Positions 27,146 to 47,243 of a stretch of DNA of 64,000 nucleotides are shown piece after piece (the stretch's first letter is position 1; each line of letters opens with the position of its first letter). The notes under the pieces were generated by a model. The model saw nothing but the letters and a program-made list of their open reading frames with translations. It had not been told where the DNA came from and did not search any database. Source of the stretch: a bacterium (GTDB lineage: Bacteria > SZUA-182 > DTGQ01); the NCBI GenBank assembly GCA_023512255.1, contig JAILZY010000003.1, forward strand, positions 29,400-93,399, in the 5' to 3' direction. The translations under genes and the position numbers were made by a program.

Positions 27146-28715
27146 TCATCCCCGTGCCGGTGCCGATAATACACTCCTGACCGTCTGAGCCATCTGCGGC
27201 AAATCAATCGGCTTGAAGAGTAGATCCTTGATCCCAAGGTCCTTGATCCTCTCCGGCGTGGCCTCCTCATGGAATCCGGTGCACAGGATGATCGGGATAT
27301 CAGGTCGCATGGTCATCAGCTCCCTGGCTAGGTCCGTGCCGCTTATGTCTGGCATTACCTGGTCAACAATCACCAGATCAAATCCCTGAGGCTGGGCCCG
27401 AAAGGCTTCCAAAGCCTCAAGACCACTCGTTTTCAAAAAAACCTTATAGCCAAGATAAGCCAGCATCTTTTGCTCAACATAAGCCACAGATTCCTCATCA
27501 TCAATTAAAAGAATGCTCTCCTCTTGCCCCCGTGGAAGAGAGGCCAACGGATTGACTTTTGGGAGCTCCCCAGGGCCTTTCCCGGCTGCCCTCTCAGGAC
27601 ATCGCTTGCTTCTTCTGTTGAGCATATCCTTAGCTTGACGAGTAGCCTTTAGAATCTCAAATAGGTGAGGCAAAGCTGGATTGTTCTTGGGTATTTCCTC
27701 TACTGCCAGCTCTGTATAGCCCATAATGAAGGCTAGGATATTATTAAGATCATGGATAAGAGTTTCAGACAGAGAAGGATAAGGCACCTTCTCTAATTCC
27801 CTGATTTGCTCTAAATCGAACTTCTCCTTGATATCTGAAATCATTCGTTTTCCCACACCATGTCTCCTTCCGTTGATCCGCTTGCGCCATTTCAATCCAC
27901 CAACCGATGATTTCCTTTGGTCTGCCATCGCTATCTCTCATCAATCCAAGCACATTGTGCACCAGGCGATAGGTGCCATCTCTATGTTGAAACCTGTAGC
28001 CAAGGGTATGGTATTCCTGCTCCATCAGGTGGGACATGACCTCAAAGACACGAGGGGCATCCTGGGGATGGAGATGATTAATCCAAAACTTGGGATCATC
28101 CAAAAATTCCTCTGGTTCAAAGCCGAAAAGGGTCTTTACCTTCTAGCTGACAAAGGTCAGAGAATAATCAGCCTGAGGCTGGCAGGCATAAATGACCACC
28201 TGTTGGGTAATTAGGGCAGGCGGCCATCGCCGACTCTCTGCCTCTTTATAATTCACTACTTGGCATTCATTGCTGATGTCAGTAAGAAAGGCATAGTAAT
28301 ACTGGATATGTCCTTCAAAGTCACAGACCGGATGAACGAGCATCTCTACCACTACTTTCGATCCGTCCTGACGGATATACTCTATCCCGTAAAGCTGTGG
28401 CTGCCCGCCGATAAGAGGTAGATATTCCCCTGCTTCAGCTTCTGTTTTCTGGGCCAGCAAAGGCATAAGATTCATGCTCCAGTCCATGCTTCGCAATTCC
28501 TCTTCGCCGAAGCCCAGTAGCTGGCAGCATGAGCGGTTAAAAGCGATGATTCGTCCATCAAGATAGCCTGCCCAAAAGGGCTGTGAGGTACGCCGACAGA
28601 TATCAGCCAAAAGGCGCAGCCGCTCCTGCTCTTCATTCTCAGACTCGACATACCCCATTCTTATCCACTCTTTTTCAGCCCGCGACGCGGCTATTTCACG
28701 GTTCATAAAATTCAC
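27146..28715 (-). pseudogene. Disrupted sensor gene: PAS-PAS-HisKA(H-box)-receiver, interrupted by one in-frame TAG and one frameshift
   Basis: Three ORFs are involved. ORFs 28143-28715 and 27765-28103 are in the same frame, separated only by an amber codon at 28143-28145. ORF 27146-27928 overlaps the second in a different frame. The HisKA H-box is LIHDLNNIL. No HATPase_c domain is present. Confidence 0.5.
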
Positions 28716-29022
28716 CTGCCTTAAAATTCATCAGCCTTAGATTTTTTGTTTTCCAAGTGACGAAAATACAAAAACATAATCAAAGAAGAGTGCATAAACC
28801 TGATGTTCATTGATGACTCATTATCATTATCGGCATAGCAGGCTGTTGAATTTGGGCTATCCGAAAGGGGGCGGACTCGGCGCGGCGATTTGTCATGCCT
28901 CCACAGGGGGACGTTCGCTTAGCACTCACGGCGGATTGGCCAGGAGATTGGCTTAAGTTCATGCCTAAAGGGGGTATTCGGTAGGACAGATTACTACTAC
29001 TAACCCCTGCGCTGGGTTAGGC

Positions 29023-30228
29023 TCATGCCCTCAGGGTGGCTGAGATTGTCGTGTAGAGCTCTTCCAATTCAAAGGGTTTGCAGAGTATGGCAGACACTCC
29101 AAGGCTACTTAGCAACCCCTGATTTGAGTCTGCTGCTGCGCCGCTCATGACTATTTTCCTTGGCCTGGCCGATTCAGGGAGGGTGGAATTGATCATCTCA
29201 AGGAGCCCCTCTCCCGGCATATCCTGTAACTTGAGATCAAGAAGTATCAGATCGTAATTTTTTTTCCGAATCATCCGAAGCCCATCACTCCCCGCTCCCA
29301 CAGCATCTACCTCGGCCCCTTGCAGCTTAAGGGCTTTTTTGATTATCTGTCTGATACTTGGCTCATCATCAATAATTAAAATTCTCCTCCCCTGCAAACG
29401 AAAGGTCTTGGTAGAGGTCGATAAAGGTGGCAGATCGTCCTCCGGGCAGCAGCCATTATCATGGGCTGAGACTGCATTGAGAGGCAGAAAGATAGTAAAG
29501 GTCGTCCCTTCGCCTGGCTGGCTTGATACTTTGATCGATCCACCATGATCCTCTATGATCCTCTTAGCCATGGCCAAACCAAGACCACTGCCACCTAATA
29601 TCCCCCCCGCCGCCTCAGCGCTCTGCTGCGCCTTGGTGGTAAAGAAGGGGGAAAAGATTCTGGCTTGATTCTCGATCGGGATTCCACAGCCAGTATCGGA
29701 TACCTTTACCAGGGCAAAACCTGCCTCTTGACCAGTTTCGATGCTAAGGACCTTCCTCGCTGTTTTGGCCATAGCTTGTTGAGCATTTAGATAAAGGTTT
29801 AAGAGAACCTGGCTGATCTGATCTGGATCAAGGAGGAGAGAAACTGTAGGCTGATGGTGAATAACCCAAAGCTTGATCCCCACCCTCTTGAGCTGCGGAG
29901 AAACTATCTGTAGGCTTTCCTGAACCAGGGGAGACAATTCAGTGAGCACCTTTTTCGCCTTCGGGGGGCTGTTGTCTGGATGTAAAAGCTGTCGGGCCAA
30001 AGAGGCAAGGTTTTGGCTGAGGCTGCGGATGGTTTTAAGCTCTTTTTCAAGCTCAAGGGAAAGCTTTCGCTCAAAGAATATGAACTCTATGTGTCCAGAG
30101 AGGATCGCGGCCAGATTATTCAATTCATGAGCCACCTCCCGCGCCCGCTGCTCCATAGCCGAGAGCTGACCAGGCGCGGGGTAGCTTGCCTGGTCATCGA
30201 GAATATTTTTCACCCTCTGCCCTCCCAT
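29023..30228 (-). CDS. Hybrid sensor histidine kinase (HisKA + HATPase_c + C-terminal receiver)
   Basis: H-box AHELNNLAAIL. The G2 box is GSGLGLAMAKRIIEDHGGSI. The receiver is RRILIIDDEPSIRQI...LLDLKLQDMPG. Confidence 0.85.
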   Translation of the reverse strand: MGGQRVKNILDDQASYPAPGQLSAMEQRAREVAHELNNLAAILSGHIEFIFFERKLSLELEKELKTIRSLSQNLASLARQLLHPDNSPPKAKKVLTELSPLVQESLQIVSPQLKRVGIKLWVIHHQPTVSLLLDPDQISQVLLNLYLNAQQAMAKTARKVLSIETGQEAGFALVKVSDTGCGIPIENQARIFSPFFTTKAQQSAEAAGGILGGSGLGLAMAKRIIEDHGGSIKVSSQPGEGTTFTIFLPLNAVSAHDNGCCPEDDLPPLSTSTKTFRLQGRRILIIDDEPSIRQIIKKALKLQGAEVDAVGAGSDGLRMIRKKNYDLILLDLKLQDMPGEGLLEMINSTLPESARPRKIVMSGAAADSNQGLLSSLGVSAILCKPFELEELYTTISATLRA

Positions 30229-30269
30229 ATTATCATCAGGATCATCACTCCTGGCTACGACGCCGTCAA

Positions 30270-30495
30270 AAGCTCAACCCCTCTGCTCGCTCGCGCGGGG
30301 GCTTTTTATCTCTCGACCCATTCAACCCCTCCCTGAACGCCCTCTGCTCGCTCGCGCGGGGGCTTTTTACGAACCACGAATGAACACTAATTCACACAAG
30401 CTCAACCCCCTGCTCGCCCGCTGCGCGGGGCGTAGGTTTTAGCAGGTCAAGCTGGCATATGGCGCTCAACCCCTCTGCTCGCTCGCGCGGGGCTT
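30270..30495 (+). repeat. CRISPR-like mini-array: 4 degenerate direct repeats (~29-30 bp, consensus gctcaacccctctgctcgctcgcgcgggg) at a 60-68 bp period, no cas genes
   Basis: Repeat cores are at 30279-30308 and 30339-30368 (identical 30-mers), 30399-30430 (variant) and 30464-30492. The spacers are unique and 22-38 bp long. Confidence 0.45.
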
Positions 30496-30523
30496 GTGGT
30501 AATGCACACCCCAAAGTGGCCAG

Positions 30524-30970
30524 CTACCTGCTTTTTTCCCTCGAATATAGGCCGATCAGCTCGGCTGTGGCCAAGGTATTTTTCTGTATCTCCTTCTGAA
30601 AGTTCATCCTATTGATGTCTTTAAGCTCCTTGGCCTTTAGGGCGTAAAGGGTAAAGAAGTAACGGTGGGTACCTGAGGGTGGGCAGGGACCTCCGTAGCT
30701 TCTCCTGCCAAAGTCATTGGCAACCTCCTTTGCTCCCGGGGGCAGTGGCCCGCCTTCAGGAATTTCAGAAACATTCTTGGGAATATCGTATACTAGCCAG
30801 TGGATGAAATTCCCTCCCGGCGCATCTGGATCGGTCAAGGAAAGCGCAAAACTTGCGGTTTCTGCCGGTGCGTCAGACCAGGATAGGTGTGGAGAAATAT
30901 TTGGGCCATCACAGGTATAGGTGGCAGGTATCCTCTGCTGATGTTGAAAGCTCTTGCTAAGCAATTTCAT
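30524..30970 (-). CDS. YbhB/YbcL-family PEBP (Raf-kinase-inhibitor-like) protein
   Basis: Has the PEBP motifs DPDAPGG...HWLVYDIP and GTHRYFFTLYALK. An internal start after an aggaga RBS is preferred over the extended ORF-track start. Confidence 0.8.
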   Translation of the reverse strand: MKLLSKSFQHQQRIPATYTCDGPNISPHLSWSDAPAETASFALSLTDPDAPGGNFIHWLVYDIPKNVSEIPEGGPLPPGAKEVANDFGRRSYGGPCPPSGTHRYFFTLYALKAKELKDINRMNFQKEIQKNTLATAELIGLYSREKSR

Positions 30971-31052
30971 GGTATTCTCCTTGCCATCAATAACCACATC
31001 ACGGCTTTTATGGTAAATGAGAAAAAGACATATAAACTTATCGTCTAAAGAG

Positions 31053-33818
31053 TCAATTTTTACTGCATAGCATCTTCTGGCAATGCCAAGATGTGCCATC
31101 CCATCTGGCAGTATAGAGAATCCAGTCATCGGCGCTGTCTACTCTTCCGTCTTGATCCTGAGCCCAAACCACCAAAGGTTTTCGATCCACGGTATAGGTA
31201 AGCACAGGGGATTCAGCCCAAGCAGCCCTGGAAATGATTCTGGGTGAAGACCACTGGCTGCCATTCCACAGTGAGCCGAAGACACAGAAGCCCTTGCCTG
31301 AGCGGTTGATCCACACAGCCGCTATCTCACCATTAGGACCTGCGGCCAGAGCAACCTCCTCATTAATGCCGGAAAGTTCAGCCACAGGAGCAGGTTCTGT
31401 CCACTCTCCCTCTATCCGCTGAGAATACAAAAGATTCGATTTACTCAAGGCCTGAGCAATCTCTTCAACTGAAGAGCGCTCATAATCAAGGCCGTCATTT
31501 GAGGAACTTGACCAGACAGCCATAGGGTTTCCAAAACTGTCAAAGACCAGGGCCGGATGGTGATGGAATTCAACCTCACGGGTTATCTCAACTGGGGTCA
31601 GCCAGCCAGCCTCAGCATTATAGGTGGCGGCATAAATTTTACTGCCAAGGCTTGAGGCAGCTAATGCTTTGGCCCAGACGACCATGACCTCTCCCGACTG
31701 GCTCCTGGCCAAAGCAGGAAGCCCATCATTGTAGATATCAGATGAGATATCCCCTAGCACGCTTTTCCCTTCATACACAGCACCACATCCTACCAGAGGC
31801 TCCTTGACCAGCTCAAGCATCTCATCTACCATAGTCTTCCCATCAGCCATGATCTGAGTTATGGTCTTGGTCAGACTATCTTTCCTCGATTGCACTGCCA
31901 AGGATTTGGGAGACAGGTTTGTTCTTTTTAAATTTTTAAAGTATGAAGAATTAGGATCAGCCCACCATCTGCTGCCTCTTGGGTAGTGCTGCCGTCGGGC
32001 TGTCCGACTTCCACCAGGCGAGGCATTTGGATCTTGCCATCTGCCGCTCAGCTCTTCCAGGGTATAAGACTTATTGAATCTTCCCACCAGGCCAGCCCAA
32101 TCTCTGCCAAATCTGACTGCTCCGCTCAGACTAAGACTTGGTATCCAGTCAACCGAGTAACCTTGAGCCGAAAAGCTATGGTTTATTGAGTAGCTGCCTG
32201 CCAGAAGAATAAACCCTTGAAATCTATCCTCCAAAGCATTGAAAACCTCTTGCGGCCCCAGGCCGACGACAAACTGGGTTACAGACTCCCGAGGCTTCTC
32301 AAGGCTCTTTGGCCTTCTGATATAGTTATAGGCTATACCTGCTGCCCCGGCTATGCCTACCCTGACGGTAGCAAGCCTGTCCCCACAGACAATCAAAGGG
32401 TGAGGGTGAGAGAGGCAAAGAAAGGTATCACTTCCACCCCAGGCAGCGATCGTCTGCTGAACCTCCCCCAAAGAAGCATGATCAGTGCTTATGGCCGCCT
32501 GATTGGAGGAAAAGAGGTTAAAACCCAAAGAAAGATGAGGGCCTAAAGTTAGTTCAGCCGTCAACTCACCAAGAGCATGGGGAGTCAAAATAGGCGAAGG
32601 ATCACGAGGAGTAAGACCCAAATCGCCGCAAAGAAAACTCGATACTTTCACATCAACGCTATTTCCCAAAACAGGGATAGCTGGCGGCAGATTGATGGTG
32701 AAGCTACTCAGAGCGATTTCCACACATCCCAAAGGGGCATAAGGGGAAATAGGCCCGACGAGATCAAGGGGATCTTCGGCCATCTGCCCTACCCAATTTG
32801 AGGGTGGCTCATCCAAAGCTGCCTCATCAGCTTTGGATCGGGCATCTTCAGACCGAGGAGCGGCCTTGCCCACGCGGTGGGCATCGACAGCTTCGGTCAA
32901 ATGGGAGCCCTGAGGAGGAGCCTGCTCACGGCTGGCTGAGGCTTGCGCCAAAACCAGAAGGTGATTTTCGGCGACCTGGCGGGCTGCCGCAGCCTGAGCC
33001 CCAGTAGCTGATGCTGCTTCTAAGACCGGCAGTCGGCCTGATAAAGGGGCTATCGCCTGTCCCCTATCTCCATCTCCATTCAGAGGCAGACTGCTGCCCG
33101 AGCCAATTACCTGATAGTAGAGGTCGGCATCATCCTCAAAAGATGCCCGCTGGAGCCAGAGCACAAGAGGATGGCCGCCTTGGTCTGTGGTCAGAGCGAT
33201 GCCGTAGTCATCATGGCTATCGCTGGTCAAATCTTGTGGCCTGCTCCAGCTTATCCCCCCATCCTCAGTAAGAGTGCCTTCTGAGCTGATGATTTTTTTA
33301 GGAGCAGTAAGGGATTCCCAGGCACAAAAAAGACTCGCTGATCTCTTTTGATCAGCCGATGTGTTCTGGTCCGCAGACTCACTCCCCTTCATGGACTGCA
33401 ACAGGCAGAGCAAAATCGGGCGATTTCCCCCATCCCCTGGTATTTTCCCGCTCCTGGCCCACTTTCCCTGCCGGTTGATTGCCCAAAAGAGTTCATTACC
33501 ATGCTCCCAAACCAAATATATATTGCCTTGGCCATCATTGGCCAGCGAGGGGTTATGATCTGGTACCTTATTCTGCCTTTCACCTGAGAGGCTCTTTTTT
33601 CTGAGATTTGAAACAGGTGCGGATAGCCGAAAAATCTCTTTTGTCTTTTTACCGCAAGATTCTCCTTCGCTAAATTCTGCCCCACCGCTTGCTCCTGTTC
33701 GCCCTAAGGCCCTTCTTCTTCCCCCTATTGCCTTGGCTGGAGTTGGCCGGCTTAAGAGCATGGTAAGGGCTAAGATAATGAAAATAAAACTTTTTCTCTT
33801 CAGGTTGTTAAGACACAT
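31053..33818 (-). CDS. Large secreted hypothetical protein (921 aa) with repeated ...AVW...W.G..WS.P beta-propeller/BNR-like units
   Basis: Has a signal peptide and repeated motifs: LVLWLQ, AVWSSSSNDG and AAVWINRSGKG...WNGSQWSSP. Confidence 0.6.
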   Translation of the reverse strand: MCLNNLKRKSFIFIILALTMLLSRPTPAKAIGGRRRALGRTGASGGAEFSEGESCGKKTKEIFRLSAPVSNLRKKSLSGERQNKVPDHNPSLANDGQGNIYLVWEHGNELFWAINRQGKWARSGKIPGDGGNRPILLCLLQSMKGSESADQNTSADQKRSASLFCAWESLTAPKKIISSEGTLTEDGGISWSRPQDLTSDSHDDYGIALTTDQGGHPLVLWLQRASFEDDADLYYQVIGSGSSLPLNGDGDRGQAIAPLSGRLPVLEAASATGAQAAAARQVAENHLLVLAQASASREQAPPQGSHLTEAVDAHRVGKAAPRSEDARSKADEAALDEPPSNWVGQMAEDPLDLVGPISPYAPLGCVEIALSSFTINLPPAIPVLGNSVDVKVSSFLCGDLGLTPRDPSPILTPHALGELTAELTLGPHLSLGFNLFSSNQAAISTDHASLGEVQQTIAAWGGSDTFLCLSHPHPLIVCGDRLATVRVGIAGAAGIAYNYIRRPKSLEKPRESVTQFVVGLGPQEVFNALEDRFQGFILLAGSYSINHSFSAQGYSVDWIPSLSLSGAVRFGRDWAGLVGRFNKSYTLEELSGRWQDPNASPGGSRTARRQHYPRGSRWWADPNSSYFKNLKRTNLSPKSLAVQSRKDSLTKTITQIMADGKTMVDEMLELVKEPLVGCGAVYEGKSVLGDISSDIYNDGLPALARSQSGEVMVVWAKALAASSLGSKIYAATYNAEAGWLTPVEITREVEFHHHPALVFDSFGNPMAVWSSSSNDGLDYERSSVEEIAQALSKSNLLYSQRIEGEWTEPAPVAELSGINEEVALAAGPNGEIAAVWINRSGKGFCVFGSLWNGSQWSSPRIISRAAWAESPVLTYTVDRKPLVVWAQDQDGRVDSADDWILYTARWDGTSWHCQKMLCSKN

Positions 33819-37921: not shown

Positions 37922-37937
37922 TGGCACACCCCTTGCA
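37922..37937 (+). promoter_or_regulatory. Sigma-54 (-24/-12) promoter TGGCAC-N5-TTGCA upstream of glnK-amtB
   Basis: Exact match to the consensus GG-N10-GC spacing, about 100 bp upstream of the glnK ATG. A sigma-54 activator is encoded in the window. Confidence 0.7.
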
Positions 37938-46705: not shown

Positions 46706-47157
46706 TAGCCGCTAGGCTAGCTCTATCCTGCCACCATCAACCAACCGGGGCAAAGTCTCATAGGAACAGCCAGGCCCTTTCCAGCCTGATCGAACCAATC
46801 ATATTGCTCCGTCGCACAGGGTGGATTATGACTATTATTTCGGCTTAAGATGTTAATATACGTGCGCTTGAAATAGTTTAAATTTATTATGCCATCTTCT
46901 TGGTTTTCAGGCGTTGCTCAGGATTGACATATCCTTTAAAATATGATAAAAACATGGCCTAAATATAGGCTTTATCTCTGATTGAGGTTAGTCTGGTAAG
47001 AAATCCTGGCCATAAAACCTCATCGGTCCCGCCTTTTTTGGGGTTATTGCTTTTGCTCAAGATTGGGAATAAGGCGGTAGGATTTGTTAGATAAGCTTTT
47101 TAGCTTTTTGAAATGGGGTATGATAGATAATTGACGGGGGTATGATAGATAATTGAC

Positions 47158-47231
47158 GCGCCCATGGCTCAGTTGGATAGAGCGACGGACTACGGATCCG
47201 TAGGTCGGGGGTTCGAATCCCTCTGGGCGCA
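47158..47231 (+). tRNA. tRNA-Arg (anticodon ACG)
   Basis: Hand-folded cloverleaf: acceptor GCGCCCA/TGGGCGC, anticodon stem ACGGA/TCCGT with loop CTACGGA, T-loop TTCGAAT, discriminator A. CCA is not encoded. Confidence 0.9.
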
Positions 47232-47243
47232 CTTAATAAAAAC

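Follow-up and report, generated by a model that had tools for sequence, protein, structure and literature searches.

A GC-rich interspaced direct repeat between a PEBP gene and a hybrid-kinase operon, probably of a non-CRISPR type

Results

An array of four direct repeats fills an intergenic gap

The stretch of DNA analysed here (64 kb, called the window below) carries ordinary chromosomal genes, such as those for PFOR, glnB/amtB, lpxB, aminotransferases and two-component regulators. Within it, a 295-bp intergenic gap (30229-30523) between a PEBP gene and a hybrid histidine kinase gene, both on the minus strand, is filled by four direct copies (30270-30496) of a GC-rich element of 31-36 nt (about 33 nt), all in one orientation. 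On the transcribed strand the PEBP gene, with its stop codon at 30524, is the upstream neighbour of the array and the kinase gene is the downstream one. The kinase gene is followed by genes for PAS, receiver and sigma-54-activator proteins, making an operon with several regulators. The features of the locus are listed below, with the copies named W1 to W4 and the spacers S1 to S3 from the kinase side.

29023-30228, minus strand: hybrid histidine kinase/receiver gene (Pfam), downstream neighbour of the array
30241-30269, minus strand: sigma-70-like promoter match TTGACG-17-GATGAT, directly downstream of W1 (a consensus match only)
30270-30305, minus strand: W1, kinase-nearest copy, gene-sense sequence AAAGCCCCCGCGCGAGCGAGCAGAGGGGTTGAGCTT; nhmmer profile E 8.8e-8; exact 22-mer core at 30279
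30280-30308, plus strand (antisense to both genes): terminator-like hairpin followed by CTTTTTAT, with a second copy at 30341-30369 (pattern scan)
30306-30334: S1, spacer of 29 nt, including a partial repeat end TCAACCCCTC
30335-30366, minus strand: W2, sharing an identical 30-mer with W1, GCTCAAC end altered (profile search)
30367-30397: S2, spacer of 31 nt, 39% G+C
30398-30428, minus strand: W3, diverged copy CCCCCTGCTCGCCCGCTGCGCGGGG (profile search)
30429-30463: S3, spacer of 35 nt
30464-30496, minus strand: W4, PEBP-nearest copy, starting 27 nt past the PEBP stop (profile search)
30524-31099, minus strand: PEBP / YbhB-YbcL family gene (Pfam PF01161, E 7.6e-41), 191 aa as called in sister contigs (L018)

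Exact matches to the 22-mer CCCTCTGCTCGCTCGCGCGGGG occur at 30279, 30340 and 30471, in W1, W2 and W4, and a search of the 64 kb allowing up to three mismatches found no others. In 100 dinucleotide-preserving shuffles there was no match at all, which places the array far beyond chance. Thus the four-copy GC-rich repeat proposed in an earlier sequence-only reading of this DNA is confirmed by both the profile search and the shuffles, with some corrections of detail. The 30-mers of W1 and W2 (30279-30308 and 30340-30369) are identical as proposed, though their starts are 61 bp apart rather than 60. Deviant copies do exist, though they had been assigned differently: the end of the 10-bp-insertion type belongs to W2, where it can also be described as CTGAACG in place of GCTCAAC with a partial TCAACCCCTC in the spacer, and the truly diverged copy is W3. 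The fourth copy, said to differ at one base, has the full core with one G fewer and without the T-run. The tail gctttttat/c, reported after two repeats, was seen at W1 and W2 only, which are followed by GCTTTTTAT/C.

When the invariant GCGAGCAG is taken as the anchor, the period of the array is 65, 66 and 61 bp (range 61-66 bp). The repeats have a G+C content of 67-74%, against 47.6% for the whole window, and the identity among whole copies W1-W4 is 61-89%. The spacers are mutually dissimilar, and S1 showed no similarity to the other spacers or to anything elsewhere. Their lengths depend on where the repeat ends are drawn, being 29, 31 and 35 nt with the profile boundaries or 22-38 nt with the ends used in the sequence-only reading, whose description of the spacers as unique also holds. 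No other repeat-spacer array was found in the 64-kb window.

The array differs between closely related strains

A Logan contig from SRR15214128 (L017), 99.95% identical to the window, ends in the array (its positions 1-109), exactly at the internal 30-mer duplication, because this exact duplication of 30 nt equals k-1 for k=31. Six JGI, ENA and Logan assemblies, 99.9-100% identical to one another, yielded a sister lineage, whose contigs include JGI Ga0078972_1001653 and ENA ERZ27247228 k141_708010. The correction of data availability for a hydrothermal-sediment metagenome paper (PMC9599585) cites one of the sister samples. Over 16 kb the sister and the window are collinear, with 96.2-96.8% identity. 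Flank identity is 93-100% per 100-bp bin right up to the array, and the interior of the array is the sole stretch of the 16 kb that does not align.

In the sister, the spacer between the PEBP and kinase genes is 225 bp long and holds three copies, AAGCTCCGCGGGCGAGTAGGGGGGATGAGC, AAGCCACGCGGGCGAGCAGAGAGGGGTAG and AAGCCCTGTGGGCGAGCAGGGGGTTGAGC (L018, L019, L112, L113), with a 62-bp period and 68-76% alike; the two spacers between them bear no relation to the spacers of the window. Across the seven copies (four in the window and three in the sister) 12 core positions are invariant, and the core G.G.GCGAG.AG.G.G is common to both alleles, which have no spacer in common. The consensus is GCGGGCGAGCAG in the sister and GCGCGAGCGAGCAG in the window. 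W1, W2 and W4 share GCGCGAGCGAGCAG with a derived duplication of GCGA, and W3 keeps the sister-type form, its 22 nt GGGCGAGCAGGGGGTTGAGCTT being identical in the kinase-proximal copy (Lc) of the sister. The presence of the GCGA duplication in three window copies together with a sister-type W3 suggests gene conversion or a recent re-duplication in the lineage of the window.

The next intergenic region, between the kinase and PAS genes, is about 96-97% identical between the strains apart from one 26-nt indel, and the neutral divergence between them is therefore about 3%. It follows from this value that the heterogeneity of the repeats predates the split of the strains, or that the copies were never exact, and that the content of the array was replaced rather than mutated.

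Two further observations concern the sister assemblies. The 26-nt indel is a tandem duplication present in the sister only, at about 28885-28890 of the window (about 9320-9350 of L018). Moreover, the independent short-read assemblies L020 (1-62) and L021 (1-77) also end inside the array, where the sister has no internal exact repeat; these breaks may reflect population heterogeneity at the array, or loss of coverage.

Distant relatives keep the gene pair without the repeat

Kinase homologues at 55-66% identity (L022, L024, L107, L030) keep the pairing of the PEBP and kinase genes, and a profile search found the repeat in none of the four. The PEBP-kinase spacer of three relatives is 65-126 bp long and free of the repeat. 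In L030 (3083-3424) the spacer reaches 342 bp by an unrelated insertion, which has an AT-rich stretch and two GC palindromes, ATTCCCGCGAAAGCGGGAAT and ATTCCTGCTTCCGCAGGAAT. The absence of the repeat from the distant relatives and the insertion in L030 therefore point to a recent, lineage-specific acquisition of the repeat in a spacer that tolerates insertions. A possible single ancestral copy in L024 (GGCAAGCAAGGCAGGGTTTTGAGC) was alike by eye, was missed by the profile even at E<100, and was put down to chance.

The kinase start and the genes around the array

The true start of the kinase is probably the GTG at 30213 (396 aa), with GGGAGGG as its likely Shine-Dalgarno sequence. The NCBI call is also the 396-aa protein from this GTG, and the same codon is TTG in the sister strains. 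The gap from W1 to the kinase start is 41 nt for the ATG and 56 nt for the GTG at 30213, and the TTGACG-17-GATGAT site within it is a possible promoter of the kinase operon. The kinase is devoid of the N-terminal PAS domain of about 150 aa present in all homologues at 55-66% identity, and this loss is read as an in-frame internal deletion because the original N-terminal motif M..K.KN is kept. We also considered whether the repeat is what remains of the 5' coding sequence lost by the kinase, and rejected this: tblastn with the PAS-containing N-termini of the homologues found nothing in the spacer, and M..K.KN is kept.

The PAS-domain gene downstream of the kinase (27765-28706, minus strand) has an in-frame stop at codon 188 (TFVS*KVK), which is Gln in the 99.95%-identical contig L017; the stop results either from a nonsense mutation or from an error of assembly or consensus in the MAG. 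A 921-aa protein is encoded at 31053-33818 (minus strand), immediately upstream of the PEBP gene and with a slight overlap. It is conserved in the sister strains and has no Pfam or PADLOC match. In L022, ORFs of similar size (933 and 949 aa), also with no Pfam match, lie upstream of the PEBP gene.

Candidate explanations

It is unlikely that the array serves as operator- or enhancer-like sites at which a protein regulating the kinase/PAS/receiver/sigma-54-activator operon would bind. Each conserved core would be one putative site, and the spacing of about 63 bp, or six helical turns, would place the sites on roughly the same face of the helix. This idea draws on the 12 core positions invariant in all seven copies whose spacers share nothing, on the anchor spacing (65, 66 and 61 bp here; 62 and 62 bp in the sister), and on the array ending directly at a promoter-like site upstream of a multi-regulator operon. 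On the other hand, the phasing tolerance is loose (61-66 bp), gene conversion alone can also yield such conservation of the core, and relatives with the same operon lack the element. To our knowledge, the core is neither palindromic nor similar to the sites of any enhancer-binding protein, which also counts against binding sites. Finally, a sigma-54 promoter or enhancer was rejected, since no sigma-54 promoter match was found in the PEBP-kinase spacer, while a perfect site exists upstream of glnB/amtB in the same window. That site, TGGCACACCCCTTGCA, lies at 37922-37937 (plus strand), with the P-II (glnB/K) and ammonium transporter genes about 100 bp downstream of it.

A cluster of REP/BIME-like or MITE-like mobile elements, dispersed elsewhere in the genome and acting as a stabiliser of mRNA 3' ends or a partial terminator, is distinctly unlikely. 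The resemblance to the REP/BIME elements of proteobacteria lies in the GC-rich units (about 33 nt here, about 35 nt there) clustered between co-directional genes with a copy number that varies between strains; the unit also shows weak terminal complementarity (GCCCC...GGGGT), and by analogy a role in termination or mRNA stability would be plausible. Moreover, the same spacer of another relative took up a different palindromic insertion, so this position tolerates such elements. However, the sequence-only reading had named single copies dispersed in many intergenic regions as a sign of a REP element, and no such copies were seen: an nhmmer profile of all seven copies, run over 162 kb (the 64-kb window and about 100 kb of related loci), found the array only, even at E<100. 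The repeat is not a dispersed REP/MITE-type element within the 162 kb examined. Nor do its copies alternate as BIME units do, all of them being direct; their palindromy is weak and their hairpins are not significant, and no REP-associated (Y1, RAYT-type) transposase was among the Pfam matches of the window. The scan of 185,579 species genomes described below likewise gave nothing beyond chance.

The sequence-only reading had offered two explanations, an orphan CRISPR mini-array or else terminator-like or protein-binding elements. The former did not withstand most of the tests that we ran, and we consider it very unlikely that the array is a relic or satellite mini-array whose cas genes are, or once were, elsewhere in the genome and whose repeats decay while its spacers turn over. 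Several features do recall CRISPR arrays. The repeat is about 33 nt long with a period of 61-66 bp, the spacers are of similar length (29, 31 and 35 nt) and all unique, an exact core of 22-30 nt is common to three of the four window copies, and the spacers are completely replaced between related strains, with sharp boundaries at the outer repeats. Against these, Pfam searches of 48 ORFs covering the 64 kb, with PADLOC for the 10 ORFs having no Pfam match, revealed neither a Cas nor a defence protein. A stop codon and a start codon closely enclose the array, and the gaps on its sides (27 nt from the PEBP stop to W4, 41-56 nt from W1 to the kinase start) leave no room for an AT-rich leader. The remark of the sequence-only reading that neither cas genes nor a leader are evident thus holds for the 64 kb.

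The spacers gave no sign of a foreign origin in the databases searched. When all of the spacer region was compared by blastn with phage (50,697) and plasmid (72,556) records, the kind of comparison proposed earlier, no match was significant, and the only hits were those of E>=0.9 to the GC-rich cores. The 20-mers taken from each spacer gave 0 matches in IMG/VR, in an exact-match scan that is insensitive to mismatched protospacers. Similarly, the ancestral-type 20-mer of the repeat had 0 matches in viral contigs. The exact repeat 22-mer had 0 matches in the JGI metagenome and IMG/VR collections, and 185,579 species genomes, scanned with a degenerate repeat pattern, gave 16 single matches, a count close to chance expectation and all of them in GC-rich genomes with unrelated flanks; the JGI metagenome and species-genome scans used the window-type repeat. 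Thus neither protospacers nor a sibling array with this repeat appeared in any collection searched. The sequence-only reading had named spacers without hits, together with a genome free of cas genes, as an outcome that would refute it; the spacers have no hits in these databases, and cas genes are absent from the 64 kb examined.

The repeats themselves also speak against a CRISPR relic. CRISPR repeats are near-identical and stable between related strains, whereas here the 22-nt core is common to only three of four copies, the repeat sequence itself varies between near-identical strains, the odd repeat (W3) is internal and not terminal, the predicted repeat hairpins are no more stable than shuffled sequence and there are only three spacers. 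The sister repeats are 68-76% alike, beyond what a neutral divergence of about 3% since the split could yield; the degeneracy of the repeats is therefore older and, combined with differing spacers, contradicts a copy-paste mechanism of adaptation. We infer that the array stores no immune memory.

It is highly improbable that the copies are reiterated intrinsic terminators, whether acting in both directions or for an antisense or small RNA of the plus strand. A stretch of 1.2 kb has seven terminator-like sites where 1.3 would be expected, and the array accounts for five of the seven; on the plus strand a 7-bp stem followed by CTTTTTAT/C is present at both W1 and W2, and GCTTTTGA follows W1 on the gene strand. 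However, the good versions are antisense to both neighbours, with no plus-strand gene end nearby, and W3, W4 and all three sister copies are without a T-run. For the hairpin at 30280-30308 an energy of -12 to -14 kcal/mol was predicted, which corresponds to a z of about -1.1 relative to shuffles. Five of the seven copies have a predicted C-run/G-run stem, with z from -1.2 to +1.6 over all copies and both strands, so that the energies favouring a stem stay within 1.2 sd of the shuffles. The hairpins of W1 and W2 rely on G-U pairs, which become C-A mismatches on the gene strand. What resembles a rho-independent terminator is therefore confined to W1 and W2, on a strand where no gene ends and at shuffle-level stability. 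The terminator-like or protein-binding alternative of the sequence-only reading thus gains little: a hairpin with a T-run is present on two copies, but it is antisense, no more stable than shuffles and absent in the sister.

Since the spacers are wholly different between the alleles, a small probability is kept on a CRISPR relic or on some other exchange of cassettes. The latter would be a hypervariable cassette array, independent of Cas or served in trans, with the cores of about 33 nt as recombination or processing sites and the 30-nt segments actively exchanged. It would explain why no spacer is shared at 96.5% flank identity and why independent short-read assemblies of the sister break inside the array, and we regard it as the least probable of these explanations.

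Other candidates were dropped. A classical tandem repeat (VNTR) shows head-to-tail similarity of the whole unit, and Tandem Repeats Finder, even at score 30, made no call at 30270-30496, owing to the unrelated spacers; the copy number is nonetheless polymorphic between strains as in a VNTR (four copies here and three in the sister). The TGTGGGCG of one sister copy resembles the Tn7 end, but it is found in one of seven copies and no transposition genes are nearby. On the gene strand, one canonical G-quadruplex motif, GGGCGTTCAGGGAGGGGTTGAATGGG, extends over W2 and S1; it has no equivalent in the sister allele. In Rfam searches, only tRNA-Arg at 47158 passed the gathering threshold in the window, and the best match in 30100-30650 (E 0.68) was to unrelated families. 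A literature search for the repeat sequences found nothing.

Interpretation and significance

With a probability of about 0.6, we consider the array to be a locus-specific, non-CRISPR interspaced direct repeat, that is a "false CRISPR" of unclassified type, which has been amplified locally and shaped by recombination or conversion between its copies. Degenerate copies of about 33 nt, restricted to this lineage, would have expanded the short spacer between the PEBP gene and the hybrid-kinase operon by local amplification of the element. As the sequence patterns suggest, the copies may have been kept alike by recombination or gene conversion among themselves, and the same process would alter both the copy number and the content of the array. 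Some observations do not favour this explanation. Unique spacers of similar length that are wholly different between strains with about 3.5% flank divergence look like CRISPR turnover and are not predicted by simple local duplication; the gene conversion is deduced from patterns in the sequence; and the hairpins are no better than shuffles, with T-runs that are not conserved in the sister allele.

Mycobacterial MIRU VNTRs are units of 50-100 bp between co-directional genes, in one orientation and with a copy number polymorphic between strains. The array resembles them in its intergenic units, single orientation and strain-polymorphic copy number. On the other hand, MIRU units are alike along their whole length and are found by tandem-repeat finders, whereas only half of each unit is repeated here and Tandem Repeats Finder is silent.

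Isolated arrays of this appearance have been classed as false CRISPRs, many of them of unknown type (Zhang & Ye 2017, PMC5294841). Such repeats, including the STAR elements of Staphylococcus aureus (PMC5294841), are likewise short, GC-rich, direct and intergenic, with non-repeated segments in between; they have no cas genes, are detected on repeat-spacer geometry alone and vary between strains. However, the STAR signature T[GAT]TGTTG[GT]GGCCC[CA] had 0 matches in the window with up to one mismatch, and STAR elements occur many times per genome, whereas the present element was seen at a single locus. Assignment to this class also has to be read with the operational definition of a false CRISPR in mind, which is the absence of spacer diversity (PMC5294841), whereas here two alleles have wholly different spacers.

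If this locally amplified repeat has any role in cis, it would be that of a GC-rich block with a weak tendency to form hairpins, separating the kinase promoter from the point where PEBP transcription ends. The block may act as a partial terminator or insulator, or as a set of protein-binding sites, and neutrality is equally compatible. A cis-acting role is considered possible because of the position between the PEBP end and the TTGACG-17-GATGAT site, and because of the conserved 12-position core at a spacing of about six helical turns; it would be weak at most.

The locus also calls for caution in annotation. Three spacers in a repeat-spacer geometry, with no cas genes, do not by themselves make evidence for CRISPR, and the annotation of a CRISPR array at this locus should be avoided. 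The locus is hypervariable within sharp bounds and lies ahead of a signalling operon, and in the same lineage the kinase is without its former sensor (PAS) domain. Should the copies bind a regulator, or the copy number alter expression, the locus would provide a minor case of regulatory variation driven by repeats, in a bacterium not yet cultivated. If, instead, the cassette array were true, it would imply a spacer-turnover mechanism so far unrecognised, or a mini-CRISPR of a distant or novel effector tuning the adjacent signalling operon.

Other repeats in the window

Two repeats of other kinds were noticed in the window. A pair of 59-nt AT-rich direct repeats (507-565 and 651-709), 97% identical and with TTATAAG-type palindromes, lies upstream of a SatD-family/HTH gene and, judging from its sequence, looks like operator repeats. 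In addition, an exact 22-nt tandem duplication (GGGGTATGATAGATAATTGACG twice) at 47115-47158 ends at the first base of the tRNA-Arg(ACG) gene (47158-47232).
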